Source: Psammoneis japonica
Taxonomy: Eukaryota
Reading direction: 5' to 3'
Assembly (NCBI GenBank): GCA_008632985.1
Contig: QPGO01000279.1
Coordinates: forward strand, 55,128-75,127
Length of the DNA stretch: 20,000 bases
A program made the position numbers and the translations under genes. Of the stretch, positions 1-20,000 are shown piece after piece (the first letter of the stretch is position 1; every line of letters starts with the position of its first letter). The notes under the pieces are model-generated. The model saw nothing but the letters and a program-made list of their open reading frames with translations. It did no database searches and was not told the DNA's origin.

Positions 1-45
1 TTGGCAACATGATGATCACTGTCAAGGATTTTGTTGATCTTGTCA

Positions 46-428
46 CATCAAGTGCAGTGGGCATCCCTGCCGTAGCCGCCGATGATGCTGCTTTCCTGCG
101 TCTGTAGGCTGTCCGTAGCGACGCTGATCCCGCAGAAGCGCGCACCAGGAAACGCGACTCTCAGCATGAGACCCACGAAGGGCTACGGGAGATCCATACG
201 ACTGAGACCGGCGCGACTGGCCATCGCGTACGTGACTCACCTTGTATGAAGGGACTGCGTAGGATGTATGTACGCAGTACCGAGTATGATTGGTTCCGCG
301 CAGGGACTGAAGACGCGGCACTGTATGTCTTACTGTCGCGCGTACACATGCAGTCTTATAATTTACGCAACACACGAATTATCAACCCTCTTTACGACTT
401 AGTGCTTAGACCCTATTTTTGCATAGGG
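46..428 (+). ncRNA. Unassigned highly structured, CpG/TpA-rich insertion; candidate structured RNA or small mobile element
   Basis: Interrupts the Gypsy frame (…NSLV | DKINKILD…). Stems read directly: ccgtagcc 70-77/ggctacgg 181-188; tttcctg 92-98/caggaaa 146-152; catacga 195-201/ttgtatg 242-248; actgcgta 254-261/tacgcagt 271-278; ttggttcc 290-297/gggactga 303-310; cgcggca 314-320/tgtcgcg 334-340; ataatt 358-363/aattat 377-382; ccctat 411-416/ataggg 423-428. G.U wobbles favour the + strand. The insertion itself is well supported; RNA function is inferred. Confidence 0.5.
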
Positions 429-715
429 CACAAGACTGTTTGTGGCATGCGGTTTCTCAATGTGATTGGCTGTCAGCGTGAACACTTCAGTGTTAAAGAG
501 TGCATCAACATTGTTCATGGGTGTGGGGGCATTCTCCCATTTGATTTTTTCATTTGCAAAGTCCAACAACATGATTCCAAGACTGCTCATTGAGTCATGT
601 CCCATGATCACATCATGTTGACTTGAAGAAGCAGTGCTGTCATCTGCTTGTGCTGTCTTCTCAACCCTTTTGTGTTTGTCTAATTCAGGCAATGAGAACT
701 GCATTGTACAGTGAC

Positions 716-1745
716 ACAATTCTGCCTTGGTTTCACGGCCACAACCCCTGCTTGTTTTTCTACGTGAGCCCTGGTGCTGATGTCACCTTTTTCAGGTGGT
801 GTGATGATGACTCTTGCCTGCCCTTTCTGAGTGCATTTTTTATTGACATGCCTTTGTTCGGTCATCACAAGCAATCTCACGTATTTGAAAGCAACTGGCA
901 TCAACCTCTTTTGGTTGGTGTGCTTGTCATTCTTGTTGGCAATTTTTTCCTTGGTTGCAATTTTTTCTATGCAAGTTTCAGCACACAAATTCCATGTGTT
1001 CCAAAAGTCATTTCCAGATGGCCGACTGGCCAAACTACAAACTGTTCTCTGTCCATGCCTCTCAAGTGTCAATGACTCCCCTTCCATCTGTTGCCAATCT
1101 GAGTTCTCTGCTTTATGTGGTGGACAATCTTCTGTCATTGATGCTCCCAGAAGTCTGCATTTGAGATCAACTCAGCATGATTTGGCCATTCTTCTATTTG
1201 CTGACAATTCTGCACAAGTTTCAGTGCAAATTCTACATCTCTTGAAAGTGGTTTCAGATGATCCACTTGCCAATCCATGGATTGTTTTCTGTTCACACCT
1301 CTCAGGTCTTAATGACTCCTTTTGTCCACTGCCAATTTAAGTTCTCTGCTTCATGTGGTGAACAATCTTTTGTCAATGCCACCTGCAGAACTTGAACTCA
1401 AGACTTCAGCATGGGTTGACCAGTTTTTCCTGTCCCTTTGCTCTCTCTTTGGTTGCACCCATTCAAGATTGCTTGTTTCATCCTTGCAACCAGATCCTGT
1501 CCCAAGCAGATGTCCTGATGGCAGCATTGAGTGCTTCAAATTTGATGTCTGGTTTTGTGGGTCCTGTTTTTGCTGCTGCCAGCTATTTCTGGTGGGCACA
1601 ACAGACTTGTGGTGTCATTTTTGGCTGATTGCAACACATTCCTGCTGCACTTTATCAATGCACTGGGGGTGCAAGTTAGCTTGTTGCCAAAGTTGCAGGG
1701 TGGAAGTGCAGCAGCACTTTTAAATGCAGAATTTTGGTTTTGTTT
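716..1745 (-). mobile_element. Internal fragment of a related Gypsy LTR/3' region, inserted into the protease with a 16-bp flanking duplication
   Basis: tgcattgtacagtgac at 700-715 vs tgcattgtgcagtgac at 1746-1761. The minus strand aligns by eye with ~6650-7670 (shared atttaaa(a)gtgc, ccccagtgca, gcagga, agtcatcat and the same ~240-bp tandem unit). Confidence 0.75.
1005..1480. repeat. Two diverged tandem copies of a ~240-bp unit
   Basis: cctctcaagtgtcaatgactcc…gccaatctgagttctctgctttatgtggtggacaatctt (~1058-1131) vs cctctcaggtcttaatgactcc…gccaatttaagttctctgcttcatgtggtgaacaatctt (~1298-1369). Confidence 0.8.
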
Positions 1746-1945
1746 TGCATTGTGCAGTGACTGTCAGTCATGAAGAGTTTGCCCTTGGTTTCCCAAGTTT
1801 GGGTGGCGGATTTCTTCATTCTCAATTTCTGCATGAATTTGTGCAAAATCATGGTTGACAATGTTCCACTGTCAAGAAGAATGCACAAGGGCTCATTTTT
1901 CTCCTTTCCCAAAGAAGCATTCATGTGAGCAACAACTGTTGGACT

Positions 1946-4174
1946 GGTGTGTGAGTTGCTTTGGCATTTTTTCTGGGCTTCCTGACACCTGGTGACATGC
2001 ACAAGACTCCTCTGCAGGAGCAAGTCATTCTTCAGAATTGCTGCACAATGTTTTTTCAAACTGACAATTTTCCTTGCTGAGTGAATCAGAATTGTGTTTC
2101 TTGGGCTTGTTCTTGTGTTTGGAATTCTTCACATTGGGACTTGTGGTGAGTGACATGTTGATTTCCTGAGTGATGATGGCATTCAATTCTTCTTTTGGAG
2201 GGGTGTTTTTAGTGTTGCGATGTGACCACATGCGACTGCCATTTGAACAATGCCTTTTCATGTCATGCTCAACATTCTTCCAACATTCCTTGGCTAAAAG
2301 CAGCACTTGTCCATATTGTGAGTGGACTTTTTGCAACAATTGCACCACTCATTGGACTCGGAACATTTGGCACCAGATTGGCGATCACCTTGCGGGGTCG
2401 ACTGATGGCTCCTGCAGCAGGGCATGAGGTTGCACATGATGTCACAAAGAGCTCATCCTCATCCAAACTCTGCAAGGCTCAAAAGGAGGGCAGCAATTGA
2501 AATCATCATTGACCCCCTGTGTCCAGGTGGCAATTTCCCAGATCTTCATGGTCTTTGGTTTCTTCAAATCACATTGCAGGTGTCGTTTCTGGTTGCAAAG
2601 TAATTTCTTGGGGAAGACATGAGTGGTGAGGTGTTGCGGGCATTTTTCGAAGGCTCTTTCATCACATTTGGACTCCAGGTTTGCTGCCTTGTTCTCAAAA
2701 ACTTGAAGAGCATCTCCCTGCAACCTCAGTTTGGTTTCACCATGTAATTTCTCAAAATTCCCTGGGATTAACTTACCACCTTTTACCCTGTTTTTCCACG
2801 GGAAGGGTGAATTCCCGGGGAATCGCCACGAATTGCCAATCTTGTCTACACATGCTAAATGCATGAATAAAAAACATTGGCAATTCCCCGTGCTTCCCCT
2901 CTCATGCATTTCTGCGAATTCTACATGCCGGCATGTGCAGAACCACACACCATCAACCGACCGCAACAAAAATGGTCAACACACCATGGAGCATTCGCAT
3001 CCCATTTATGATGGCTCTTGTCAAACAACAATGAGACCAGTCAATCCAGTGAGTGAGATTATGATCAACAGTGTAAAATAAAAAATGAACAGAACTGTGA
3101 CAGATGATGTTGAGCAGACAACTGGAGCATTGATCCAAAAGAGTGATTCTAAATTATCCACTTCATTCTGCACATAAGATGTGTCAATTGGAAGAACAAA
3201 CATGGCCATTCACTCCGCCATGTTTTCATCAGCAACACATGGTTCTGCTTTTGCCTTGGACTTTACCACAAATGCTGCATGGCTTGCATTTGTGACCTGT
3301 TGTTGTGCAGCTGCAAATGCAAACTGTGAGGCATCTAGAGTGAAGGCTAAGGCAAAAGCAGAACCTCACAAGGCCAATAAAAATTGTGGGGGATTGTGTG
3401 GTCATGCTTGTTCTTTCCTTTGACCCATCTCATTTGCAGAACACAGTGTGTCATGTGTTCCTTCTTGTGTGGCATGGTCACAAATGCAAACCACAAGGGC
3501 TCTAGAGCAAAGGATGAGGCAAAAATAGAACCGCACATGAGCAACATTGACATGGCTGATTTAACGGTAAAGTTTGTTCTTTCCTTGCTCTGCCACAAGA
3601 AGCTGCTTTTGTGTCGATGCACTGGTCATTGTCGTCATCTTGCATCATGTCGCGTCGGTTGTCAGGGGGATAAAAGCACAACCACCTGACTGTAATTACC
3701 GCACATTACCACATTCCATTTGTTTTGTGTTCCCCTCCCCTGAGCCCTTTCAGGCATTCTTTCCCACAAAATTACCCTCATTTCCCGGGTTTTCCCCAAA
3801 CGGGCAAGGTGACTCCCCCTCACCCTGGCCATTTTGGGGAATCCCCAAAAGGGCAAAACCAAACTAAGCCTGCAACAACACATGCACAATTTGGCACTTG
3901 TCAGCTTGGCTCTGTTTTGCATTCTGTCCAACCTGAAGTTTGGCAAAGGTCTTCAAAAATTTGATGAACTTGGGAACTCCTTGCTTGTTGTGACACTTGA
4001 TGTTGATCATGCAAGTGCAACTTTTTCATCTCCAGGGTCAAAACACTGCTCCATGTTGAGACACTAGCTTGGCTTGAGTGCTTTTGGCTTGGAAATCAAT
4101 TCCAATGGAACAGGACCAATTTTCTCCTGCTTGACGCAGATCTGGGCATCCATCACTTGGGGTGAAAGCTTCAT
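1946..4174 (-). pseudogene. gag: Gypsy gag (capsid-like region plus CCHC zinc knuckle), split by the 2725-3868 TIR element
   Basis: ATG at 4174-4172. Frames are continuous once 2725-3868 and one TSD are removed (LLQ|GDA). CX2CX4HX4C at 2303-2344. Multiple stops and frameshifts. The 3' border is approximate. Confidence 0.8.
2725..3868. mobile_element. Non-autonomous TIR DNA transposon (1144 bp) with an 8-bp TSD, a length typical of hAT or P elements
   Basis: TSD cctgcaac at 2717-2724 and 3869-3876. TIR ctcagtttggtttcacc (left) vs the reverse complement of the right end, cttagtttggttttgccc. Many ttccc/gggaa subterminal motifs. Removal restores gag LLQGDA. Confidence 0.88.
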
Positions 4175-4210
4175 TCTTGTGGTTTTACCTTCTGTGGAGT
4201 GCATGCACAA

Positions 4211-4515
4211 TGCACTCCTGTGCTTGAAGAAGGAGTGCAAATGAAAGCAGAACAAATCACAAAAAGTGAAAATTGTGAGATTGGGCTTCTTTGCTCTCTG
4301 CAATTTTGAGATTCTCCAAAGGTGTTCTCAACAGCCTGAAGCTTTGGCACTGCTTCTACAGACTGAAGGCCTTTTGGAGAATCTGATCATGACAACAGAT
4401 TATCCGGATGCAATCAACATTGACGCCTCACATGTCAACATCATCTGTTGATGGCACCTGTGCAATTTTCAACATTGGATCAACTCTGTGTGATTGATCC
4501 ATCCTTTGTGTGCAT
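4211..4515 (-). repeat. 3' part of the 5' LTR of Gypsy #1
   Basis: Inverted homology to ~7720-8019 (e.g. tctgtagaagcagtgc, gtgatttgttct, tttcatttgcactc, ttcttcaagcacag). Lies just upstream of the gag ATG. Confidence 0.75.
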
Positions 4516-4584
4516 CCACAACTGTGACACGATTGACACATGGCACAACATGTGTGACTGTGAACAAGCACATGACAATGCATG

Positions 4585-6536
4585 CTGCAGACCATCTCAG
4601 AAAGCTTGAGAAAACATTCACATGGCTCGAGCAAGCGGGATTGAAGGTTAACACCAAAAAGTCATTTTTTGCCAAGCCAGAGGCAAATTGTCTGGGTTTT
4701 CACATCACTCAAAATTGCATCAGACCAAAACCTGAGAAAGTGGAGGCGATTCAAGCAATTGCAATGCCTGCCACTCACTGGGAATTGTTGTGTTTCATTG
4801 GCATTGTCAATTGTTGTGGAGACATGTGATCCAATGCCTTTGGCCAAACTCACCTCATTTAAGGTTAAGTGGCAATGGACAAGCACAGAACAAAAAGCCT
4901 CCAAAAATGTGAAGTGGATCATGTCAAAAGATGTGTCACTGTCACACCCAAATTTCAACATTCCCTTTGTGATCCATGCTGACACAAGCAATTCTCTGCC
5001 AGGAACAGTCACAATGCAGAGAACAGCAGACCTGTTGCCTTCTACAGCCACAAGTTAAATGGAGCACAGACGTGCCACACTGCAATGGAAAAAGAATTTG
5101 TGTCCACAGTGGAGACACTTGAGGAATTCCAGAATGTGCTGTTTGGCCAACAGATTAACATGCACATGGATCACAAGAATTTCACCCAAGAGAACTTCAC
5201 AATGGAGAGACTCATGCATTGGCAACCAACAACAGAAGAATGCAGCTCCAAAACAATTTACCTCAAGGGCAAAGTGCATGTTGTTGCAGACACGATCAGC
5301 CCAATCACTGTGAAGAAAAGAGAACCTGTGGAAAACCTCAGCAATGAAGAACCAGCTGACAAAAGTTGCACCTGAACCCCATGACAATGTCTTTCCATTA
5401 ACACAAAAAGTTCTCGACACTAAACACAAACAGGATGAAGACATTTTCCCCAAATTGTTGGACGCAACATGTCATGCCAAAACTTTTTGTTGAGGCAAGC
5501 AAAACCAGATGCTCATCTGTCACAAGGATGAAATCATTGCACCAAAGACATCACAATGAGTGGTGACAGATTGCCACCATTTGCACCTTCTGCACCATGG
5601 CATAAATGGAACTGAAGAGACAATCTCACAACACTTGTGGTGGTCCATCTCATGTGAAGATGTGCAAAGATGTGTTGAAATGTGAGACATGCCAGAAATT
5701 TAAAAACAAACAAAAGAAATGTGGGCATTTGCCTCCTGAGTTCACAGAACCAGTGCCATGGGAAAGACCACACATGGATCTTGTTGGAACATGCAAGATG
5801 CATCGGAAGGACAAAAAGAAACCCCCAGCTCTGAAATGTCTGACAATGACAGATCCAGCAACAGCACAGTTTGAAGCAGCAGAAACTCCAAACATGGAAT
5901 CCATGACCATTGCTAGATTGTTAGAGAGAATGTGGTTCTTGAGCAGATGTCCTTGGCCATTGTTGGTCACTTGTGATTGTGGAAGTGAATTTGTTGGATG
6001 TCAATCTCTAGAACTGTGGTTCACGATTGTTGTGGCATTAAATGCAAGCCCACAACCATGCAAAATCCACAAGCAAATGCCACAATTGAGCACATGCATC
6101 AAGTGCTGGGCAACATGCTGCATGCATTTGATTTACAAAATGCACCCCTGGATGCTCAGAGTCCTTTTGAGGGAATGCTGTCAGCAGCAGCCTTTGCACA
6201 GTGTGTTTGACATGTCATGCCACTGTGCAAGCTGCACCAGAAGAATTGGTCTTTAAAATGCTAGAGACATTGCCAACTGGAAGTTTGTTCAGAAACAAAC
6301 ACAAGATGTTTTAAATGCAAACAATGCCAGAGAGAATGCATGGTGCACTCCATGCACGTGCAGAGTGGGAGAAAAGATCTTGCTAGAAAAAGACTCTAAA
6401 AAATTAGAATGGCCTTGTGCTGGGCCATGCATCATGACAACTGCACACACTCAATGGCAAAGTGCAGATCAAATGTGGTGATCTCATGCATTGACACTGT
6501 CAACATCTCCAACAAATGATTCCATTTGACGAATGA
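4585..6536 (+). pseudogene. pol: Gypsy #2 pol fragment: RT C-terminus, RNase H and integrase (H2C2, DDE core, GPY/F)
   Basis: HLRKLEKTFTWLEQAGLKVNTKKSFFAKPEANCLGF…RPKPEKVEAI; LSHPNFNIPFVIHADTS; EKEFVSTVETLEEFQNVLFG…HMDHKNFT; CETCQKFK…CGHLPP…PWERPHMDLVG; TCDCGSEF; NPQANATIEHMHQVLGNML; PCAGPC…NGKVQI. Domain order RT-RH-INT identifies Gypsy. Frameshifted. Confidence 0.93.
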
Positions 6537-6551
6537 CTCCAATGTGCAATT

Positions 6552-6562
6552 GGGAAGGGGAG
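6552..6562 (+). promoter_or_regulatory. Polypurine tract of Gypsy #2
   Basis: gggaaggggag, ~15 nt after the integrase stop and immediately followed by TG. Confidence 0.7.
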
Positions 6563-8019
6563 TGCAGCATGCATTGTCAAGTGGGTGAAATTGTGCATGT
6601 TCACAATTGCACAATGTTGTGTGTCAATCGCACCACAATCATGGATGCATGCAAAGATCAAAAAACCAGATCTAAATTTAAAGTGCCATCACTCCTCTGC
6701 CAGCCAGTCTGACCTGGCTGACCCACAGCCCCAGTGCACAGTTAAGTGTGGCAGGAGCTTGTGCGGCATTAGCCAGAATGGGCATCACCAGAAGGTGACA
6801 CCCCACCAAGACAACTGAAAAAGAATGATTCACAAGAGGGATTTATTGCGCGCTTGCTGATGACAGCCACAGAAGGCACACCACAACTGCAACAGACAAT
6901 TGCATTCAGATGGGTTTTTAAAACAGTCAACAAAAGGAGCCTTGAAGGCAAGACAAGCAGGTCATTGGAGAAAATGTTTGTTGCACACAGAAGCAGCACT
7001 GAGTCTTGCACAGAAAAGCGGATGGCAGCAGCAAACCAACGACAATCAAATGGCACCACAGGATGACTTGTGTTCTTGCTGAAAAGGGCTGAAACAGAAG
7101 CAGCACATTCACCTCATAGAGTGAAGTGCTTGATTGCATGGCAGAGAAAAAAGTGGGGTTGAAGACCGATTGGCAAGGACAAAAGTAGTCTGGATGAGTG
7201 ACACGTAGATGGTCAGTGGTGTCACATTGACACAATGCCAGATCTTGCGCAGAACAGCCGATGAGAGCAGCAAATGGATGACAATCAAATGACTCTGAAG
7301 GATGACTGACATTCTTGCTGAAAAGGAGAAGCAGCACTTTCACCACAAAGAGTGAAGGACTTGATTGCATGGCAAGGAAAAGAAGTGGCATTGAAAACCA
7401 ATTTGCAAGGATAAAAACAGTCTGGGGAAGTCACATGCAGATCATCAGCAGCATCTGCACATCCTGGCAGAATTTGCACTAGAACCTGTGCAGAAAATTT
7501 TCTGAGACAACAGAAAATTACGAGAAACAACAACCAGCACACTGGCCAACAGGCCGTGACAGTCATCATTTTCCACTGATGAACATTGCTCATCATGTTG
7601 TAATGAGGATGTGCCATTGGTGAACAAGGACAGCATGGGCTTGTTGGAGCCAAATCAACACAAGAAGGTGCGCAGCAACCTGTGTACAAGCTGAGGGCAT
7701 GCAGCTGATGTCGAAAAAGTGTGTGCAAAGATCAGATGGATCACACAGAAAAAATTGATCGGATGTCTAAAATTACAAAAACACCATGGATGGACAATGT
7801 TGACACACAAGATGTCAATGTCGATTGCATCGGGACAATCTGTTGTCACGTTTAGATCACACGAAAGGCCTTTGCTCTGTAGAAGCAGTGCAAATGCTTC
7901 AGGCCATTGAGAACTCTTTTGGTAAATGGCAAAATCACAGTGTAAAATCTGATCTTATAATTTCCACTTTTAGTGATTTGTTCTACTTTCATTTGCACTC
8001 ATTCTTCAAGCACAGTGCA
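6563..8019 (+). repeat. Putative ~1.45-kb 3' LTR of Gypsy #2 containing a ~240-bp tandem duplication (7004-7242, 7243-~7485)
   Basis: Starts TG after the PPT. The last ~300 bp match the sequence upstream of gag in Gypsy #1 and end in …aagcaca(gtgca). Tandem units begin tcttgcacagaa and tcttgcgcagaa. Confidence 0.65.
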
Positions 8020-8117
8020 AAAGGTCAATTGACATTGCAAAACAAAACTTTTTTAACTCTCATGACTTGTTTTTCTGATGTGGCAGCTGTCTCCACTGTT
8101 GCCTGCAATCTTTCAAG

Positions 8118-8536
8118 CTTTTGATTTTTTCCCCTCATGCAACGTGCATCTTATCTTGTGAAGCAGCAGGGACAGTGTGTTCATGTGACCGTGTTTCTGC
8201 CTCAGTGCGGCTTCTGGGGACCAGCCCTTCCTCTGCATTGGTCACACTCAGTGTTGCGCACATTTTAATCTTTTTTTCTCATGCAACATGCATCTTGTCT
8301 TGTGAAGCACCAGTGACAGCATGCTCAAGTGTTTCTGCCACAGTGTGGCTTCTGGTGACCAGCCCTTTCCCTGCATTGGTCACACTCAGTGTTGCGCACA
8401 TTTTAATCTTTTTTTCTCATGCAACATGCATCTTGTCTTGTGAAGCACCAGTGACAGCATGCTCAAGTGTTTCTGCCACAGTGTGGCTTCTGGTGACCAG
8501 CCCTTTCCCTGCATTGGTCACACTCAGTGCTGTGCA
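8118..8536. repeat. Three tandem copies of a 138-bp unit
   Basis: Copies start at ~8118, 8261 and 8399. Copies 2 and 3 are identical except for the last few bases; copy 1 is diverged. Confidence 0.93.
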
Positions 8537-8599
8537 CAGAAATTTTGCATGTGTGACATCCTCCTGCAGATTTCCTGTGCACAGCCATTTGCAAGCTTA

Positions 8600-9620
8600 A
8601 CATGGGCCGACAGAGTTGCACTTTCTCACAGGGCAATTTTTCATCCAGATGCATGACTGGCAACATGCGATGATTCACCAAAGGTTTTGGCTGCATTTTT
8701 TTTTGGTTGGCTGTGGGGAAGAATGGTGAGTTGTTGACAAACAAGATGATGCAGTGCAAGACCAACATTTGAACCACAGCCAAACACTCCCCAGGAGCTG
8801 CCGCAACCTTGGCCATTGCATGTGCCAACGTGATGTTCATCAGTGGGGAAAACAAATTGTTTGATGTTCCCAACTTGACTCTTGGTGCAAAAACCTTTCT
8901 CAACCTTGTTGAAAACTGTTGTGGAAATGAAGTGCATCCAAGAAGTCCATCCCTCAACATGGAACAGACAACACTGGATTTGCTACAATGAAAGGCTCTT
9001 GACCCTCTGTGACCCATTAGAGTGGTGTGTTGTTGCTGCCAAAGATGACACAAATGCACAAAGGAAATCATGCAAAGTGTGAGAGATGTAAGAAGGATCC
9101 ATTGTTTCACTGCTTCAGAGCAGAACTTGCCATCACAATGGTGACTCAAGAAGATGAAGGAAAGTCACCTCCCATGAGAACATGCCAAAGATGTGTGTGG
9201 CAATGAGGACAGCACACAGCTGGCAGATGTGCACAGGCTGCATCCAGGAGGCAACACTGGCACAAATGTGCTGGTGTCAGCTTTGTGTTCTGTTCATGAG
9301 AGATGAAGTTGACAAAGCTGAGCTCAAGTGTGCAGCAACACATCACAAGTTTGTCCATTTGCTTTGTTCATGGAGACAGCATCACAAGTTGTAAGGCAGC
9401 ATTGGTGCCTTGGACCAAGCACCTGCTAAAGATGAGCACAGCATTTTGTCATGGATGGCTTGTCATGGATGGGAACCATGAACAAATTGATGCAAAAACC
9501 ATTTCCCCAGAAGCAACAAAAATTGTGATGAAGAAAAGCAAGTGTGAAGAAACAAGCCACAACCACCAAGTTAAACATCAGCACCTGTGAAAACAAGTTG
9601 GAGGCCAACAGAGCCACAGA
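8600..9620 (+). pseudogene. Degenerate coding relic of unknown family, probably transposon-derived
   Basis: Long protein-like frames broken by TGA (consistent with CGA decay) and frameshifts, e.g. LAIACANVMFISGENKLFDVPNLTLGAKTFLNLVEN and a CxxC…CxxC pair (KCERCK…RTCQRC). No family recognised. Confidence 0.25.
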
Positions 9621-12265
9621 AAAGACAAGGACAAGGATTCAATCATTGACTTGCTTGCTGTGCTTCTGGCAACACTGACTCAGTCATTGCAAAGGAAGAT
9701 TTTAAAGGAATTCATGGTGTCTGGCATCGTTGACCAAAGACTCTGAATTGCCCTGATTTAGAGTCTGTCATTTGTTGTGCTGTCAAATGGCAAGTCAAAA
9801 GAATGTGATCTTTGCTTGTGATCATTCCCCACCTTGATCACAGTGTGGGACAACAGTGGGGCGAGGTCACATCCCTGAAATGGTTTTTGATAAACTCAAG
9901 TTCCATTGGGACTGTGATCCCACCTGGAACATCTGCCAGCCTGATGCCAGCATTTTGCAAGAGCCCTTGCTGTGTCATCAGAGAGGCAAGAAAGGGCACA
10001 TGAGTCCCAGGGGATCATTTGGCACTTTGAACTGGTGAGTGCACACTCAGGTTTGTTGTGTTGGCCCATCTCTGATTGAAGTGCACACTCACTCATTGGC
10101 ATTTCAGCTCTTCATTTACTTTCCCCTTTGTCATTCAGGCTTCATGTGTGACTGTTGCCCCATGATCAAATCTTTCACTTTTTGCATTTTGACTGGAGTG
10201 CCAAATGCTCAGCAAATGTTTGGCAACCATCTGGCCTTGTCATGCCCCAATCCATCCAGATGCACTCAACTTTGCCAACTGGATTTGCACTCCTGTGCAC
10301 TCAGTGATGTCCAGTGACATTTTTGCATTTGATGTTTTCATGTTGCATGTTGACATGTCAAGCTCTCAGGTTAAATGTGACAAGGCATGCTCTCATGAAT
10401 GGGCACTGCGTGTTGCATGAAGTTGTTCACATGCAATTTTCTTGTCCATGCTGCAGCATTCCCATGGGAATTTCATCTCATCAACTTTTTGCTCTCTTTG
10501 TTTTCACCAATGTCAACAGCGTGAAATTCACACACTCCGGTGGCGCCTTCTCTGCTGTGGTGAATTGGAAAATTCCTGCATTTGTGGCTGCTTCTTGCAA
10601 AACACAGTCCTTTTGTCTCCATCAATGATGTGTCTGAAGAAGTTGATGGCAACACAGAGAGCATTTGCTCTTTGAGCCAAAAACTTGAGGAACAGGGGGT
10701 TGGGATCGGCCATTGAGAATGGTTTTCTTTGCCACAACAACTCCCTTTCTTGTTGGAGGATGGTGGCAAAAAACAAAGGATCATTGGATGCCACTTCCTT
10801 TGATGCCAAAGATCCTTCTGGTGAGGAAGAAAAGTCCACCACTTCTGCTGAATTGGAGCCCAGTGCTGGGTGCATGGAATCACTGCTCATTGGCGCTCCT
10901 TTTGTGGATGATGAGGACACCAAAGATCTGTTTGCTGAGTTTGTAAATGATGATAAAGACGACAAAGACAATGAAGATGACAAAGGAACATCTCTGTGAT
11001 CTGAGACATTGACAAAGCAGAATCTACAGAAAAACATGCTGCGGCACTTCTCCAATGTAAAGTTGTGCAGAGAAGTCACAGCCATCAATTTTCTTGCACA
11101 GAGTTGGCACTTGAAATGCCATGGAACCAACCCCAGCCACCACATGCCACACAAGACGACACCCAAGTTAATGTGCAAGCATGATGTCATCAAGAACACT
11201 GTCATGTCAAACACATGCCTGTAGAAAGAGAGCATTTCAGACATGTGCAGTCCACACACTGTTGTGCAATGACAGAATCTCATCTGTGACAAGCATTTTG
11301 GATGCTCCTTTGGAGATTTTGTCCTGTCCCACACTGAACCACAGAAGTCAAACACAATGGAAGCACATGGCATTGAAAGCATCCACCTGCAACCACATTG
11401 TGACATTCCAAAGGGCGGGTGTCAAACTGCAAATCTGCATGTGGGAAAACTCCTGAACCCCTGGAAGTGTGCCAAGATCTCACTGACTGATGTTGCCATC
11501 CAGACAGTTGAGAAAATGGCAATTGCTGAGGGCATTAAAGTGTTTAAATTCATGGGTAAATGCAGAGACAACCTGCACGACACTTGCTGATTAGACTGCA
11601 GGAATGGAACACACAAAAAGTGACACCACAAGTGACAATGAAGAATGCAAAAGTGACAATGAAGGCAAAGAAGAAGGGCATGAAAAGACTCTGACAAAGA
11701 ATGCAAAGAAGTTCAAGACATTTTAGCAGATGTAAATTCCAGTCCAGATCAGCTGCAAGACGATGCAATCACCAACCACAATGACCATGGCAGTGCAGAA
11801 AACAAAGATGAACTGCAACACAAAGACAAACCAACCAAGAATGCAGGGCCATCAGCAATGAGAAGTGGAAAAGTGTGTGGTGTGGTGACACACCTCCACA
11901 GACAAAAAAAACAACAGAATGAGAGACAAAAGTGCAATTTACAGGATTGGCAGAAACCAAAGAGGAAAGACACAAAGAGAGCAAGCTCAAATGCTGTCAC
12001 CATCTGTGAACAAACACAAGTCCCAACCTAGAACAGGACATGGAATGTGACATTGAGACAGGAATGGTTGTGGCACAATTCATGCAAGAGATCAATGACC
12101 AATTGCAATCAGGAGAGGGTTTCTCATTCGCCCAGCAACACCTGCTGCATGAAGGCCTCAAGACATGTGGCCAACGAGGACATGAAACTTCAAGGGGAAG
12201 AAGGTCAAACAACTCCATGACAGAGTGTGCTTTGCACCAGTGTCAGCCAACACAGCATCCACGGA

Positions 12266-12690
12266 TTCACCAGGCAAAATTGGCAAAAGTCGGGTGTGGC
12301 AAAAAGTGTGCATTTGGTCAAAATTGATCATTGAGTGCAAATGGTGGCATCTTTGGGGTCCCTTTAAAGAGCCGGACATGCATGTTTCTCATTTGACCAT
12401 CACAGGTCCGTCTCATGGGGGGTGTCAAAACATCATGCTTTGATGCANATTTTCAATTTTATGTGACCTCAACAGCTGAGTGCATCATGTGACGATTAAT
12501 CCTCGAGATGCATCAAAGCATGATGTTTTGACACCCCCCATGAGACGGACCTGTGATGGTCAAATGAGAAACATGCATGTCCGGCTCTTTAAAGGGACCC
12601 CAAAGATGCCACCATTTGCACTCAATGATCAATTTTGACCAAATGCACACTTTTTGCCACACCCGACTTTTGCCAATTTTGCCTGGTGAA
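12266..12690. repeat. Perfect 182-bp inverted repeat (12266-12447 / 12509-12690) with each arm ending at an N, within an insertion in the Copia RT
   Basis: The arms are exact reverse complements (identical ORF translations on both strands). N at 12448 and 12691 sit exactly at arm ends. Confidence 0.9.
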
Positions 12691-14028
12691 NGTGGTGTTA
12701 AAGACATGACTCTGACTGAGAGAAAGAGAGCTGTGACAGCCCTGATGTTCCTCATGGAGAAACAAGATGGCAGCGTGAAAGTTTGGATGGTTTACAATGG
12801 AAAGCTGATCAGAGAATGGCCAGACAAGGATGAATCAGATCGATGCCAAAGAAGGGCATGACACGATGAGCGTGGATGTGCCAAATGTGTTCATTCAAGC
12901 CCAGGCACCGGAACCCAAGAGGGACAAGACTGGATCATGATGAAGATTGCAGGAGTGTTGGTCTGCATGCTGGCGAGCATTGATTCCAACCCATGTGGAC
13001 CACATGTGGTCATGGAAAAGATGAAGAGAGTCATCTGGTGTCTCGAGGTTCTCAGAGTGACATGCAGCACGCCAGTTGCAGCCTCTTCACTGGGTGCAAA
13101 AAGTTTTGCAAGGACCTGGAGAAGATTGGGTTTAAGTTCACTCCATGTGATCCATGCATTGCCAATTGCAAAGTCAACGGCAGACAGCACACAATCTGTT
13201 TTCACATGGACGACCTGTTGTGGAGCTGCAAGAACCTCAAGGTCAATGACAAATTACAGAGCCAGCTCAACAAGATGCATGGAAGCCATGGAAAAGTTGT
13301 TGTGACTGAAGGGAAGAGACACACGACTGTCTGGACATGACCCTGGACTTCAGCAAGAAAGGCAAGGTGAAGGTTGACATGACCAAACACATCCGCAAGA
13401 TGATCAAACAGCTTCCAGAAAAGATCAAGAGCACCAATGCCACCATGATGCCAGCAGGAGAGAACCTGTTTAACACAAACAACATGAGGTCACCAGCTGA
13501 CAAAGCACACCTTCCATGCATGGGCAGCCAAAGGATCATTTTTGTTCAAGAGCAGTTGAATGGACATGCACCCTGTGACTGCAGCCCTGTGTGTGTGTGT
13601 GAGTCAGGGAACCAGCCAAAAAGGATTGGGGAAAGCCAGTGCAATGTGTCAAGCACCTGAACCACACAAGGAATGAAGTTGCCGCACTGAGTGCAAAAGA
13701 CCACACCTTCAAATTCTCAAGTGGTGTGTGGATGCATCATCATTTGTGGTGCACCCAGATTTCAAGAGCCACACCAGATGCATTGTGACAATGGGTGACA
13801 GAGCAGTGCAGGCTGTTTCTAAGCACAGGAAACTGAACACCCAAAACAGCTCTGAAGCTGAGCTTGTCAGAGTCAACAATGCCATGACTGTGATTCCATG
13901 GACCAAGTCATTTGTGCAGCAACAAGGGCATCTGATTGACAAGAATGTCCCACAGCAGGACAACCAGAGTGCCATCCTGTTAGAGACCAACAGGTCAAGA
14001 GTGCCAGGAAATGGTCCAGGGTGCTCAA

Positions 14029-14436
14029 CCCTTCAACCACCGGACTTGAGCAAGTGACATTTTATTCACGCGATTTTGTTTTGGAACTTGCATTCGCCAA
14101 AAATCTGGGGGAACCCTTTTTGTAATTTAGAAAGTTCAATGTCAACTTTTAACACCGGTTTTTTTCAAGCTTCATCTGTGAACAGAGAAGAACTAAATCT
14201 CAACCTTCAACAATGCAGGTTTTTGTGAATCACTGTCACAAATGGAGCAAAACAATGCCACACCCTTGGAGCTCCCAATGAGCAAATGCACATGGCACAC
14301 TTTACGTAGATTGTGGGTGATGTGACATTTTTGTGCTGTGTTCATTGTGTTGTCATGAAAGTGCATGACACATCACAAATCCTCAAGCAAAGCAAATCTC
14401 CACCCACAGAGATTTGCTCCCCTGGTGGTTGAAGGG
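14029..14436. mobile_element. piggyBac-like MITE (408 bp) in the Copia RNase H
   Basis: TIR cccttcaaccacc / ggtggttgaaggg (13 bp exact). 4-bp TSD tcaa at 14025-14028 and 14437-14440. Removal restores GKWSRVLN-I*CSFVT (Copia KRSRALNIRYFFVT). CCC…GGG ends plus a 4-bp TSD are piggyBac hallmarks. Confidence 0.85.
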
Positions 14437-15404
14437 TCAACATTTGATGCTCCTTTGTCACAGAGATCAGATCAAGAAGGGCAACTTGAGAGCCCAGCGC
14501 TGCCCCCAAGATGACATGCTAGACTGGGAAACTTCATGATGAAGCTGTCACAGGGCAAGAAGTTCCAAAAGTTCAAGTGAGTGATCATGGGATGCCAGAG
14601 AGAAGGTGAGCAGGGTTCTTAAAATGCAGAAAAGAAAACGTAAGTGCACTGTTGTAAAAAGATGCAATTGCACTGATTTGGCAATCACATCACAATCATG
14701 TCACAATGCTCTGCCTCCCTGGCAGGGGCGCCAGGCACACCCTCCACACAGGAGCACCCTCTGCACAGGAGAAATGCTTGCCGCAGGTGAAGAAAAATGG
14801 AGCCTGTTGCACAATCTGGGTAAATTTCTAGCATCAATTTGGACCTTGATGGCAACCTAAAGACAGTGTCTAAGATAACACTGGAAACATGCACGGAAAA
14901 CTGGCAGCGTCTTCACTCATGCTGCAGTTGTTTCTTTTCCATCACCTTGTCCCAAGATGCAATTGTGGCAAGGAGAGGCAAAATGAGGGGCGGCAATTGC
15001 TTCTTTCTGTCTCTCTCGTTTCTCTTTTCTTGAGAGGTGCAATGGGGGAACGAGACAGCACTGGCAGCTGCTAGAGACTGCGTGGCATCCAAAAAGAGCG
15101 GTGGTGGTGTGGTGCCTCCAAAAAATGTGATGTGCACATGTGACACAAGATTCCACATTCCAAATTCTCACATTTGGCTCTCAAAAAGAGCTGGCACAAT
15201 GATTGCAAACCATTGCAACTGCAATTGCAACAACAGCACATGTAATCAGATTGAATGTGCATGGCAAACGCAAATTACAAACATCATTTCTCAGATCTGG
15301 TGATCGTTTGCAATCAATGTTATGACCATTCTCTGTAATTTAAGAACCCTGAAAGAAAGTGTGATAAATGCGCAAGCTGTTTGTGATGTCAAAAGAGAAT
15401 TCTG

Positions 15405-16600
15405 ATGCATGTGGGGGAAAGATCCCTGTCAAATGAGAGGCCAAAAGTGCCTCAGTTCCAATGGAACATAATTCTCAATTGGGGAGACTTTTTGTTCTTT
15501 GAGAACACATCAACCATGGAAGAGGTCAATCCCTGTGTCAATGACATGTTCAACACAGTGTTCGATGTGTTGCAGGATGCAGCAATGCAACAATGGCCTG
15601 TGGGTTGCTGGTTTAGGATCAGAGACCATGAGGCTTACAAGGAAATGGTGAACCACAACAAGTTCAAGGCTCTCATGGTGGAGAAGAGATTGCAATCAAC
15701 AAGAGCTCCGTGGGTGCCAATGGATGAAGCAAACATTGTAATGAGGAAGCAGGGCATTGAATTTAACAATGCAAATGATGAATTGCAACAATGGCTTGAG
15801 GTGGACAAGATGAAATTGACTGATGATCCTTGCCTCCACTGGGACATCCTGGACTTGTGTCAGTTGGCACAAGATGAAGCAAATGAATGAGGGTGGTCTT
15901 AGCCTGTGACAAGGTGGGGACCCCATTGTTGCCAAAATGGCAAGACCTGTGAAACAAGAGACATGAGATGATGCTGCACACTTGTGAGTGCATCAGGAAC
16001 TGGACTGAAATTTTGTCAGAGCATGTGTCTGTTCCCACACCAATGTTTTCCCTGCACAAAGAAATGGACGTGGCATGTGAAGTTGACAAGCACACCCAGG
16101 AAGCATGCAGAACAAAAGAGTGCTGGCAAGTTGTTGGAAGACAAGCCAGCAGGCAAGGTCACAGTTGTTAAAGACTGAGTGATCATTCAGTGGCTGGATG
16201 TCCCACATGTGGTGTGGACAGGTCAGGGGTCTGTGGTCCCCTTGTGAAACTTAATGCTGAAAATCCTGAAAATGCAATGAGCCAACACGTGCTCATGCGG
16301 GACAGTGATGGCATTGTGTTTGATGGACCAAAGTTGGCAAAACTTTTCCATTGCAAGACAAGTCTGGTGGGTCCATTGGTGACATGGACTTGTCACCAGA
16401 TGGAGTTCTTTGAGTTGACTCCAGAACTGATCCATGATTGGATCAGGGGACAGTTGGACAACACCTGTTTTAAGCAGTGCTGACAGAGAGAGTTCAAGAA
16501 GCATGCATCAGTGATGCAGCTGTGAATGTGCTTGATGCAGTCCTGGTTTGACATTCCAGATGGGCACATCCCAACATGCAGCAACTGGTGCAATGAGCAA
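15405..16600 (+). pseudogene. Degenerate ORF of unknown function
   Basis: Near-continuous protein-like reading (MEEVNPCVNDMFNTVFDVLQDAA…; …FFELTPELIHDWIRGQLDNTCFKQC*QREFKK) with few stops or frameshifts. No motif recognised. Confidence 0.35.
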
Positions 16601-16899
16601 AGTGCCAATGTGAGCAGCAGCAGTGTGTTGGAATGCCAAGTTGAGACACACGGATGTCATGCATTGTGACGCAGATTTGTTTAAGAAGAGATCTTTGATC
16701 TCTGATGTGGATCCATGTTGACTGAATGTGAGTGTTTTTATTCTCACTCTTTGGAGTGAATCATTTGGTTTGCACAATTGTTCATTGGTGTCCAGAGATG
16801 CCTGCATTGTGGCAGTTGCAGAGTCCACTTTGATGCCCAGGCACACCACAGCCACCAGAGACTGCCAAGGAAAGTGCAGCAAGCAGCACAGGAGACCTC

Positions 16900-18150
16900 G
16901 TGCGATTCCCTTTTGGCAACATTGACTTGCCAGTTCAACAGCAAATCCACATGGTTTTCACTGATGGAAACTCACAAGAGATCAAAGAGCTTGGAGATGC
17001 CACACAAAGGCACATGCCTGGAATGCACCAGGCAAGGTGTGGGTGGCACATTGCAGAGAAAGGTTGGTCAAGGACTGCCCCAGCAAGACCTGCATGTCCA
17101 CCTGCAGCTAAGAAATTTGAAGCTTCTTGTGGGGGCCATCCAGGTGTGGCTGTGCTTGTTCATGTGCCCAGGGGGTTGTGAGAATGAGGAAAAGATGATG
17201 GTCACCAGGGCCCTCCTTTTCATGTTTTTGCACTTCCCAATGGTCCTTGAGATTTGTGAGAGAATGGAGTCCAACCCAACACACATGTTCAAATTCATCT
17301 GTGGCAAAGTGTTCAACAAGGAAGCAAGCTGTGCTTTCTGTCAAAAGAAGTAGATTGATCTCTGCTGGGGAGCCAACAACTCCAGTCTTGAAGGTGCTAA
17401 CTTTGGCAGAAAGACCTGTGCTGCTCCAGTTTTGCCATCTCAGAACCTTGCAACAAGCACTGCAAACCTGGCAATGCAGTCAGATGCCAAGGTGAAGGGG
17501 AGCTTTTTTTGCAGTCAAGCTGTGCAGCTCATGACAAGTGTCTCTGGTTGAATCTCCCAACCGGGGATCATGTGCTCACCAAGTGCAAGGGCATTTTGGC
17601 TGGTCGATTCAAAGCCATCCCATGCTGTGAAGACATGCACAAACCCCAGTCATCCCACACAAACCAGGCAACTGGCGTGCGGAAGGACTGGACAACATGT
17701 TTGAAGATTTGTTGCAAAATGATGTAAAAGGTCCCAGAATGCCAGATGTGTTTGACCCATCAGTTGTGCCCAATCCAACTACCTTTTTTGAAGATTTGTT
17801 TGAGGAGCCAAGGTCAGCTGTGTCTTCCCTCAAGAATTGCTCAGCTGAGCAAGCGAGGAGTGCAGTTGACTTGATGATGATGCTGATGTTGAACATGGGT
17901 GCAGGAGGCTTTTCACAGATTTTGAACATCAACAACAAGGACAATGAGTCTAACGAAGAAGCAAAGATGAAGACTTGGGACTCGGCTTCCTTGCTGACTC
18001 AGAACAGGATGCTTTTCCACTGTGGACTGTGGACAGCAATGTGGTCCCACCCCCAACTGCCAACAAAGGTGTTTGCAACCTTTTGGTGCCCAGGACAAGC
18101 ATCATGTTGTGCAGTTTGCAAAGATGTTTCCTTGATTGATGTTCCAGATG
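16900..18150 (+). pseudogene. MULE/MuDR-type DDE transposase relic (C-terminal two-thirds)
   Basis: VFTDGNSQE (TDGNSQE 16960-16980), RCGWHI (17035-17052; the MULE CxxH motif), WLCLFMCPGGCENEEKMMVTRALL, NNSSLEGANFG (third acidic residue), and a possible decayed SWIM region near 18010-18060. Confidence 0.75.
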
Positions 18151-18321
18151 TGCAACCTTTGGCACAGTCCACAGATGAGATGACAGTGGACATGCAAAGA
18201 AAGCTTCAAGAATCATCAGACACAACTTGCCAAAATGAAAAGGAGAACTGCCCACCCCAATGGGTGTCAAACTGTTCGGAACATGACACCAAGAGGTGCC
18301 CACATGTGTCACAATGGACTT

Positions 18322-18490
18322 GACATCTTCTAATGTGACACACATGACATGACACAATGCATCCCTTGCATCATGTGATGCATCTGTGTCATCACACAGG
18401 GGTGCATTGTGCATTGCATGATGCATGAGTGTCACATGTGTGTTGTCATGTGATGCATTTGATGCATGTGTGTTGTCATGCACAATGCTC
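18322..18490. repeat. Low-complexity tract built almost entirely of TG/CA/AT steps
   Basis: tgtgacacacatgacatgacacaatgcat…tgcattgtgcattgcatgatgcatg…catgtgtgttgtcatg (the last motif twice). Confidence 0.7.
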
Positions 18491-18529
18491 AAATTTCATT
18501 ACAGTCAGATGCTAACTGCATTCCACAGC

Positions 18530-19400
18530 ACCTCTCTTGCCAAAAATCTTGGGAGCTCAAAAGACTCGGTCAAGGTGAATGTCCAGATTTCTTGTGTTTC
18601 TTGTTAAATTTTCTGGCATGTCTCACACTTGCACATGTGTTTTCTTGTGTCTTCACATGAGACAGACCACCACAAGTGTTGTGAGATTGTCTCTTCAGCT
18701 CCATTTTTTATGCCAGGATGCAGAAGGAGCGCATGATGCCAATCTGTGACCACTGATGCATTGCCAAGTTGCACAACACAATGTTTTGTTCTGTTCTCAA
18801 CAACAGATGTTGTTGTGTCCTCACATCAGAACTCCTTGCAATGGTTGTCATTTTTGCAAATGCACATTTCAGCAATTGCTCAAACTTGCGCAATTTTAGA
18901 AATTGCTCAAAGTTGCCATGTTTGAGCAACCGGGGATGCAAGTTTGAGCAATTGCTTCTTGAACTTTCACTGGCAAAAGCCAAGACTGAAACTTTCAGTC
19001 ATGACTGTCGAACATTGCTGAACAAGGTGTTTGCTCACATCCATTGTAAAGCTCACAAGTGTTTGAGCATTTTTCCTGTGTGGTGCAGTGTCTAGAACTT
19101 GTGAGTCAATGCAAAGACATTGTCATGGGATTTAGGTGCACTTTTGCAAACTGGTTCTTCAGTGCTGAGGTTTTCCACTGGCTCCATTTTCTTCACATTA
19201 AGTCAGCTGATTTTGTCTGCAATGATGTCAGCCTTGCCCTTGAGGTAAATTAATTTGGGACTGCATTCTTCTGTCATTTGATGCCAAGGCATGACTCTGT
19301 CCATTGTGAAATTCTTGTGAGTGAGATTCTTGTGATCCACATGTGTCTTCATCTGTGGGCCAAACAAGACACTCTGGAACTCTTGCAGTGTTTCCACTGT
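18530..19400 (-). pseudogene. pol: Gypsy #3 fragment (RNase H end and integrase H2C2), same family as #2, interrupted at ~18760-19090
   Basis: VETLQEFQSVLFGPQMKTHVDHKNLTHKNFTMDRVMPWHQMTEECSPKLIYLKGKADIIADKIS, collinear with 5109-5300. ctgaagagacaatctcacaacacttgtggtgg is shared with 5612-5643. Confidence 0.9.
18762..19090. mobile_element. Fragment of a DNA-transposon end with subterminal ttgctcaaac repeats, possibly CACTA-like
   Basis: Replaces ~130 bp of Gypsy linker. The motif ttgctcaaa/tttgagca occurs repeatedly in both orientations. The minus-strand end reads cactgcaccacacaggaaaaa, but cact overlaps host sequence. Confidence 0.45.
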
Positions 19401-20000
19401 CCCAGCTTGGCCCCTGGTGTGTGTCTGCAATCCTTGGGAGCATCCTTTGCAGGAGGCTGTGTGTTTTGTGCAAGACAAATCTCAGCGCACAACTCTGGCA
19501 TCATCTCACTGTCAGCACATTGCTGTCAAAAAACAAAAAAGCACGCAAGAATCTGGGTGCAGCAGCAACTGCAAGATGATGTTGCAAAGCATCCTTTGCA
19601 TGGGTCAAGTCACCAACACATTGCATCTGTCATTCATGATGTCTGCACTCATTGTCGCAGTGTCAGGTGGAGCTCTGGTTCATCCACAATCTGTGGAAGA
19701 CTGAATTGATGTGTTTGTTGACAGTTTCACACAGTGTTTTACTTTGTTTCAGAACTGTGTTGTCTCTGTTGCTCTGATGTCTCTCATGCTTTTTTGCATT
19801 TGCCACATGTCATTCACATTGTTGCACAGTTTTTGATGGAGATCCCAATCTAAGTGGGAATGATGCGCAGCCACTAAGACCCCCCCCACTGGGAGAATGG
19901 TGAGCCCATCTACAATGGGAGCACTGTTCTGCTGGTGAACAGTGCAGTGGTGTATCTTCACTGCTGTCTAAACACAGGACGGGGGATGACGTCAGTGAGG

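Follow-up and report, generated by a model that had tools for sequence, protein, structure and literature searches.

A probable young copy of an unclassified short interspersed repeat within a CG- and TA-depleted retroelement of Psammoneis japonica

Results

Layout of the locus

We analysed a window of 20,000 nt of Psammoneis japonica DNA, corresponding to positions 55,128 to 75,127 on the forward strand of contig QPGO01000279.1 (assembly GCA_008632985.1). Close to the start of the window lies a segment of approximately 384 nt, hereafter the insert, which interrupts a minus-strand ORF with protease homology (Table 1). The window was compared with contigs from two sequencing runs: a public run, X1, which contains 68% of the sampled words from 30-445 and whose contigs were compared over window positions 1-2000, and a sediment metagenome run, X2. 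Unique or single-locus sequence in X1 has a depth of 32-37 (about 35). X1 possibly derives from the same sample as the window assembly, and it is then independent of the assembler, not of the sample.

Table 1. Coordinates of the insert, its repeat core and the host retroelement in the 20,000-nt window
Feature	Positions	Strand	Remarks
Insert	46-428		383-385 nt; borders ± 1-2 bases; undecayed dinucleotides; no credible ORF
caca direct repeat, left copy	44-47		possible target-site duplication or junction microhomology; indistinguishable from chance in one copy
caca direct repeat, right copy	429-432		read directly
High-copy core	53-312 (about 53-310)		X1 summed contig depth; shared edge at 53
Low-copy, A+T-richer end	313-428		closes with 6-bp hairpin 411-416/423-428 around T5 run
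X1 summed depth	68-134		5226
X1 summed depth	135-201		2338
X1 summed depth	202-268		4726
X1 summed depth	269-335		462
X1 summed depth	336-402		201
X1 summed depth	403-469		149
Host ORF	429-782	-	C-terminal half of retropepsin-type protease at ~483-713
Host ORF, continuation	3-44	-	DKINKILDSDHHVA; in phase with ORF ending at 429
Protease, N-terminal half	1739-1963	-	DSG motif at 1865-1873 (within LLDSGT); ~1.07 kb from C-terminal half

Two further repeat structures were observed elsewhere in the window. A perfect inverted repeat has arms of 182 nt (12266-12447/12509-12690) that are 100% complementary and separated by a 61-nt spacer; one N comes directly after each arm (12448, 12691). That the arms are flawless although their surroundings are heavily decayed points to a foldback element of very recent origin or to an artefact of assembly. 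At 8119-8604, a 138-nt unit occurs three times in tandem, and identities to the first copy are 96% and 62%.

Host retroelement

A phmmer search with the ORF at 429-782(-) against 1.84 billion representatives yielded 58 matches at E ≤ 1e-3 (best, 2.2e-8), covering approximately residues 24-100 of the query. We aligned 55 of these matches with the query, three long multi-domain matches being left out, and Pfam assigned Asp_protease_2 to 12, RVP to 9, gag-asp_proteas to 8 and RVP_2 to 3 of the resulting 56 sequences. One relative (P0028) also contained RVT_1 approximately 130 residues downstream of the matched stretch, and the profile of the relatives matched residues 84-99 of HIV-1 protease with an E value of 1.8e-4. 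The ORF at 1676-2128(-), when compared by hhalign with the alignment of the relatives, matched its NH2-terminal part (residues 56-130) with a probability of 97.5% and an E value of 8.1e-12. Pfam applied directly to the flanking ORFs gave no match, even at an E value of 10; a word-indexed homology search for longer proteins related to the flanking ORF found none, and a cluster look-up of 10 protease relatives returned no informative names.

Given the protease domains of the relatives and the presence of the ORF with a DSG motif, we conclude that the host is the pol of a retroelement with its protease encoded on the minus strand and split between 1739-1963 and 483-713. An LTR-retroelement pol has a retropepsin domain with a D-S/T-G motif, followed by reverse transcriptase; here the domain and motif are present, and the reverse transcriptase would lie before the start of the window. 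By homology, the flank is a retropepsin-type protease region of a retroelement pol, and the label "Gypsy" from an earlier reading of this DNA, made from the sequence only, is not carried over, as it would call for the Gypsy-type order of reverse transcriptase, RNase H and integrase and for a reverse transcriptase phylogeny. The insert sits approximately 18 codons past the protease domain.

The same sequence-only reading had proposed that deletion of about 46-428 rejoins the host frame. The two peptides concerned, NSLV (ending at 429) and DKINKILD (starting at 44), are indeed in phase, whereas the proposed deletion, at 383 nt, is one base short: the two frames lie 384 nt apart (45-428), a multiple of three, so that the flanking host ORF pieces are in phase.

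The approximately 1.07 kb that splits the protease domain showed features of its own. At least five X1 contigs skip 703-1783: they pass from 702-711 to 1771-1784 by way of 23-35 different letters. Both edges of this stretch encode the peptide HCTMQ, and direct repeats of about 238 nt (1092-1140/1330-1378) lie within it. The stretch probably arose by an earlier nested insertion or by duplication. A separate element on the plus strand at 4494-5375 contains RVT_1, RT_RNaseH and RT_RNaseH_2 according to Pfam, and the neighbours of its RNase H ORF were generic Ty3-like clusters from several phyla. Comparison by tblastx gave no link between the protease region of this element and that of the host of the insert. 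An inverted copy of its Ty3/Gypsy-type reverse transcriptase and RNase H pieces, 79% complementary, was found at 19140-19400 (piece 19140-19481, minus strand).

Junctions of the insert

Both junctions are bridged by X1 contigs that show 0 differences from the window. The first (record 1; 352 nt, depth 32.5) spans 1-120, crossing 45|46 and extending 232 letters past the window start, and the second (record 5; 1203 nt, depth 37.1) spans 357-1559, crossing 428|429. Each of the two has more than 31 letters on either side of the junction and stands at unique-sequence depth. The X1 contigs fragment between 120 and 357, as expected inside a repeat.

These contigs bear on whether the segment stems from a chimeric assembly or from contaminating DNA, as might be suspected from its start 45 bases from the beginning of the window, from a composition that is foreign to the window and from the existence of a 229-nt relative in the sediment metagenome. 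Such an origin is very improbable in view of the two error-free contigs at unique depth, the first of which continues well beyond the window, the abundance of the repeat core in the organism's own run, and the lack of any match in prokaryote genomes, viral contigs, plasmids and phages.

Other X1 contigs represent related sites that lack the segment. In one, at a depth of 32, base 45 is connected to base 443 through 13 different letters; in another, at a depth of 62.7, base 45 is connected to base 572, and the shorter side measures 25 letters. Given that the intervening letters differ from window positions 429-442, these contigs correspond to diverged host paralogues rather than to the other allele. 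With a left side of at most 45 letters, and of 25 in one of them, they are suggestive rather than strong evidence of insertion. Together with the bridging of both junctions, the break of these paralogous contigs at base 45 bears out the earlier claim of an insertion.

The 4-bp caca duplication that had been put forward for an alternative border is present (Table 1). The segment-less paralogue has 13 letters at the site, for which a model with a 4-bp target-site duplication predicts 12 and a model without such a duplication 13-14. Seven bases (46-52) separate the break in the host from the edge of the repeat family at 53.

CG and TA content

The insert (46-428) contains 34 CG (positions 71 to 395) and 24 TA (positions 73 to 424), or 58 of the 424 CG and TA sites of the window in 1.9% of its length. 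A previous hand count of 31 CG and 17 TA in 61-360 proved exact on recount. The right flank at 429-700 contains 2 CG and 2 TA. Ratios of observed to expected frequency were 1.19 for CG and 1.21 for TA in the insert, compared with 0.17 and 0.14, respectively, in window positions 501-20000, where those for CA and TG were 1.81 and 1.85 and those for the remaining twelve dinucleotides were between 0.88 and 1.20. Among 200-nt bins, the first two contain 15 and 19 CG and the other 98 contain 0-9, mostly 0-3. The second-densest cluster of CG and TA in the window (17 sites in 219 nt at 2745-2962) falls far below the insert. The compositional edges are sharp and match the insertion borders (first site at 71, last at 424), without fading into the flanks. 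G+C content is 0.56-0.61 at 46-340 and 0.40 at 341-428.

Paralogous X1 contigs often have CA in one copy where another has TG, as at 892-893, 902-903, 1850-1851 and 1884-1885. Such pairs look as if both forms had arisen from a CG or TA that has since disappeared. Loss of TA through transitions differs from the usual methyl-cytosine pattern, and the background, in which TA is lost as completely as CG, is more unusual than the insert itself. Our literature search found no account of joint CG and TA depletion, which is no proof that none exists. For one dinoflagellate, 5-hydroxymethyluracil is reported to be enriched on repeats and to be without sequence preference (PMC11071213); the idea that the loss of TA reflects this base is unsupported.

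Repeat family in the insert

The summed depth of X1 contigs over the insert (Table 1) corresponds to roughly 60-150 copy-equivalents for 60-268 and to about 4-12 for 269-428, and summed depth over the retroelement flanks was 130-690. With so few copy-equivalents over 269-428, the insert could be composite, or it could represent a long form that is rare. Eleven X1 contigs cease to match at 53 and run into flanks that are unlike each other (agreement of 0.44); such a shared break is the signature of a family terminus, here a candidate one, with many insertion sites. Eight other contigs share only 194-268 and have a common, different left flank (agreement of 0.77).

At position 90, an alternative letter is present in 42 X1 contigs. 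Variant contigs of single-copy depth differ from the insert at 18 of 125 positions (60-184), 20 of 141 (128-268) and 16 of 138 (175-312), and 87 of the 109 changed places among X1 contigs across 1-2000 are transitions. The 16-20 differences of the relatives per 125-141 nt, mostly transitions, are the pattern expected if older copies had decayed. At three well-supported variable sites (105, 185 and 229), the insert has TA where most of the X1 depth has CA or TG, so that this copy is not simply the family consensus. A 229-nt contig of X2 covers 66-268 with 11 differences (approximately 95% identity) and shares five of the X1 majority variants (90, 145, 146, 229 and 254), indicating that the family, or an organism bearing it, is present in the environmental sample.

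No second copy was detected in the window by blastn with a word size of 7, and an ungapped scan of the window after purine/pyrimidine recoding gave a best score of 63/80, compared with 60-65 for shuffled inserts. Pattern scans, which are insensitive given that copies are approximately 86% alike, gave no match for the exact 22-mer at 204-225 in metagenome and viral contigs, for a degenerate version of 106-134 (CG and TA written as YR) in metagenome, genome and viral contigs, or for a degenerate 202-228 pattern in genome contigs. Plasmids and phages, searched by blastn in distant mode, also gave no match to the insert.

Another very abundant repeat was observed at 1676-1876, with a summed X1 depth of 11,262 at 1676-1742, the highest in the 2 kb, and of approximately 2,900-3,600 up to 1876; X1 contigs have loose ends at 1675 and 1747.

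Class of the element

The absence of terminal inverted repeats, of a poly-A tail and of a credible ORF had been noted from the sequence, and a repeat search, a reading of the ends and Pfam on the ORFs were all negative. The inverted-repeat search of 30-450 (seed of 6) detected only internal pairs, 67-77/181-191 and 251-261/271-281, and Pfam found no family in the ORFs of the insert. No A-run at the ends of the insert, microsatellite tail or Pol III A and B boxes were found. ARAGORN predicted 0 tRNA genes in 1-1000, and tRNA, 5S and 7SL RNA were without a match in the Rfam search of the same interval.

Several classes of element were considered and rejected. A MITE or other DNA transposon lacks its terminal inverted repeats here, and for a solo LTR, which has TG...CA termini flanked by a duplication of 4-6 bp, the ends cannot be placed so that the flanks match. 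Helitrons have a 5' TC and a 3' hairpin followed by CTRR, and insert between A and T. The insert does have a hairpin at 411-428 and a TC at 48-49, but its right end reads ATAGGG followed by C, with neither a CTRR nor a T flank. As SINEs are, the insert is short (less than about 600 bp), non-coding, high-copy and dispersed, although it shows no head derived from tRNA, 5S or 7SL RNA and no internal Pol III promoter. From its repeat depth, its diverse flanks and its lack of an ORF family, terminal inverted repeats, tail and tRNA likeness, we conclude that the insert belongs to a family of short, dispersed repeats that are non-coding.

A different origin, not by transposition, would be the copying of filler DNA from a multi-copy locus (a spacer, a satellite or the interior of an element) into a double-strand break during end joining. 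The lack of terminal inverted repeats, of a tail and of a convincing target-site duplication would fit such an event, which would explain a microhomology of 2-4 bp such as caca, and so would the seven bases at 46-52 between the host break and the family edge. The insert also looks composite, with a GC-rich, high-copy part and an AT-richer, low-copy part, and the eight contigs that share only 194-268 represent a second context. The break of eleven contigs at 53 into unlike flanks is, however, what a transposon terminus gives, and the copy number, in the hundreds and with variants at single-copy depth, also argues against filler. We regard this origin as unlikely.

Folding and RNA homology

The sequence-only reading had described the segment as a multi-helix RNA with at least eight stems that tile almost its whole length. 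The stems exist in the sequence: 70-77/181-188 and 254-261/271-278 have 8 of 8 Watson-Crick pairs, and 358-363/377-382 and 411-416/423-428 have 6 of 6. They are no more than chance provides, however, when helices within 130 nt are counted and compared with those of 200 dinucleotide-preserving shuffles. Helices of at least 6 bp numbered 75, compared with 60.9 ± 9.5 in the shuffles, 15 of which reached 75; those of at least 7 bp numbered 31 (shuffle mean, 22.7; reached by 16 of 200), and those of at least 8 bp numbered 10 (shuffle mean, 7.9; reached by 54 of 200). The stems are what a sequence of this length with 55% G+C yields.

Minimum free energies were compared with those of 100 shuffles of the same kind. 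The plus strand gave -122.0 kcal/mol against -123.05 ± 5.84 kcal/mol (z = +0.18), with 57 of 100 shuffles folding at least as well, and the minus strand gave -130.5 against -126.45 ± 5.37 kcal/mol (z = -0.75), with 21 of 100 as good. Folding was thus no better than that of dinucleotide shuffles on either strand, and the proposal that G.U pairs favour the plus strand is contradicted by the lower energy of the minus strand. Fifteen sliding windows of 120 nt, evaluated on both strands over 1-680, gave a lowest z of -2.18 (241-360, minus strand) and a next lowest of -1.37; the value of -2.18 is about what the minimum of 30 tests yields. A cmscan search of 1-1000 on both strands with E values up to 10 gave three chance-level matches to Rfam, with 13.9-16.1 bits against gathering scores of 44-112, and the only one that touches the insert (2-84) has 14.1 bits against a gathering score of 112. 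Folding energy, sliding windows, helix counts and Rfam all failed to support a multi-helix RNA, and a ribozyme or guide RNA is also without support.

An 8-mer at 70-77 has its exact reverse complement at 181-188. This 8-mer is identical to the start of the dinoflagellate spliced leader. The full 21-nt spliced-leader motif does not occur in the window, even with 3 mismatches allowed, and the likeness of 70-77/181-188 is no more than a lead and may be chance.

The insert might nevertheless be a functional or master ncRNA gene, such as a Pol III source gene, that is kept free of modification, and hence of CG and TA decay, and is possibly as old as its surroundings. This copy is nearly pristine, while the differences of the single-copy relatives (18, 20 and 16) are about as many as the CG and TA sites in the stretches that they cover (17, 21 and 23), and a T5 run is found 8 nt short of the right end. 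Anecdotally, within the stems proposed earlier, the majority variants 146 C>T, 147 A>G and 185 A>G would keep plus-strand G.U pairing, and with 229 T>C a G.U pair becomes G-C; such compatible variants are few, however, and their compatibility is expected to be inflated by the derivation of the stems from the same sequence. Folding no better than that of shuffles on either strand, the lack of an Rfam family and of a tRNA-like head, and the coincidence of the compositional edges with the insertion borders all speak against such a gene, as do the paralogous sites without the segment, which call for an insertion whichever account is preferred. A gene of this kind seems decidedly unlikely, and a functional ncRNA kept free of methylation is a less economical explanation than late arrival.

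Discussion

We consider it probable, with an estimated likelihood of approximately 0.68, that the insert is nothing more unusual than a nested copy of a short interspersed repeat, so far unclassified, and is younger than the retroelement that hosts it. The earlier proposal of a recent non-coding mobile insertion thus holds in part: the junctions, the segment-less paralogues and the multi-copy core agree with it, whereas its extension to a structured RNA, a ribozyme or a guide RNA lacks support. One copy of a short interspersed repeat that is non-coding and abundant in this organism would have landed in the pol of a much older LTR-type retroelement, which, like the rest of the window, has lost nearly all of its CG and TA to CA and TG via transitions. 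Given that the insert retains CG and TA, most of that decay had most likely already taken place when it arrived, and its contrast with the flanks would then represent a difference in age and not a sign of function. The undecayed state most likely reflects youth, which in the letters of a single locus looks the same as local protection.

Movement of the repeat may have occurred by retroposition, with the plus strand read as a SINE-like unit or the minus strand as the tail of a 5'-truncated LINE or SINE. SINEs nested in older transposons resemble the insert in that they are a few hundred bases long, non-coding and high-copy, and have diverse flanks and one sharp terminus. In the plus-strand reading, the GC-rich, abundant head and the AT-richer, rarer tail of the insert are also SINE-like. 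SINEs differ from the insert in their head derived from tRNA, 5S or 7SL RNA, their A and B boxes and their A-rich or simple-repeat tail, and the target duplication of the insert is at most 4 bp. The 3' ends of 5'-truncated non-LTR elements (LINEs), and SINEs that share a LINE tail, also offer a comparison, and several LINE clades need no poly-A tail. In the minus-strand reading, the end at 53 would be the 3' terminus, with X1 depth falling from 4726 through 462 and 201 to 149 with distance from it, as for 5'-truncated copies. Unlike a LINE, however, the 384 nt contain no reverse transcriptase coding sequence, no partner LINE was identified, and the depth drops in a step rather than along a gradient.

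Retrozymes, which are small retroelements with self-cleaving ribozymes, and other structured mobile RNAs are similar to the insert in size and in being non-coding and repeated. They differ from it in that no hammerhead, HDV-like, twister or other ribozyme family was matched with E values up to 10 and no excess folding energy was found.

CpG decay serves as an age clock of repeats, as for young and old subfamilies of primate Alu. The insert is comparable in that a young element retains mutable dinucleotides that its old host has lost. The likeness ends with TA, which has here been lost as thoroughly as CG, both to CA and TG, and this is not the vertebrate pattern.

A more speculative interpretation is that an undescribed ncRNA family has seeded hundreds of retro-copies, with the insert as its intact source gene or a very close daughter of that gene, and that this copy alone has been shielded from the double decay of CG and TA to CA and TG, for instance by active transcription that keeps base-modifying enzymes off. 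We think this combination, source gene and shielding together, a long shot. If true, the insert would mark a new mobile RNA and at the same time serve as a natural reporter of places that the mutational process spares.

As a nested copy of a short interspersed repeat, the insert in itself matters little, since a young repeat in an old retrotransposon is an everyday genome structure. Its use lies in that it can serve as an internal standard for the depletion of CG and TA. The presence of 384 nt with normal dinucleotide content directly abutting DNA in which CG and TA are depleted by approximately 85% indicates that the depletion is due to time-dependent mutation of resident DNA rather than to sequencing or assembly bias. 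Copies of the family that differ in age could be used to calibrate the rate and the sequence context of CG and TA decay.
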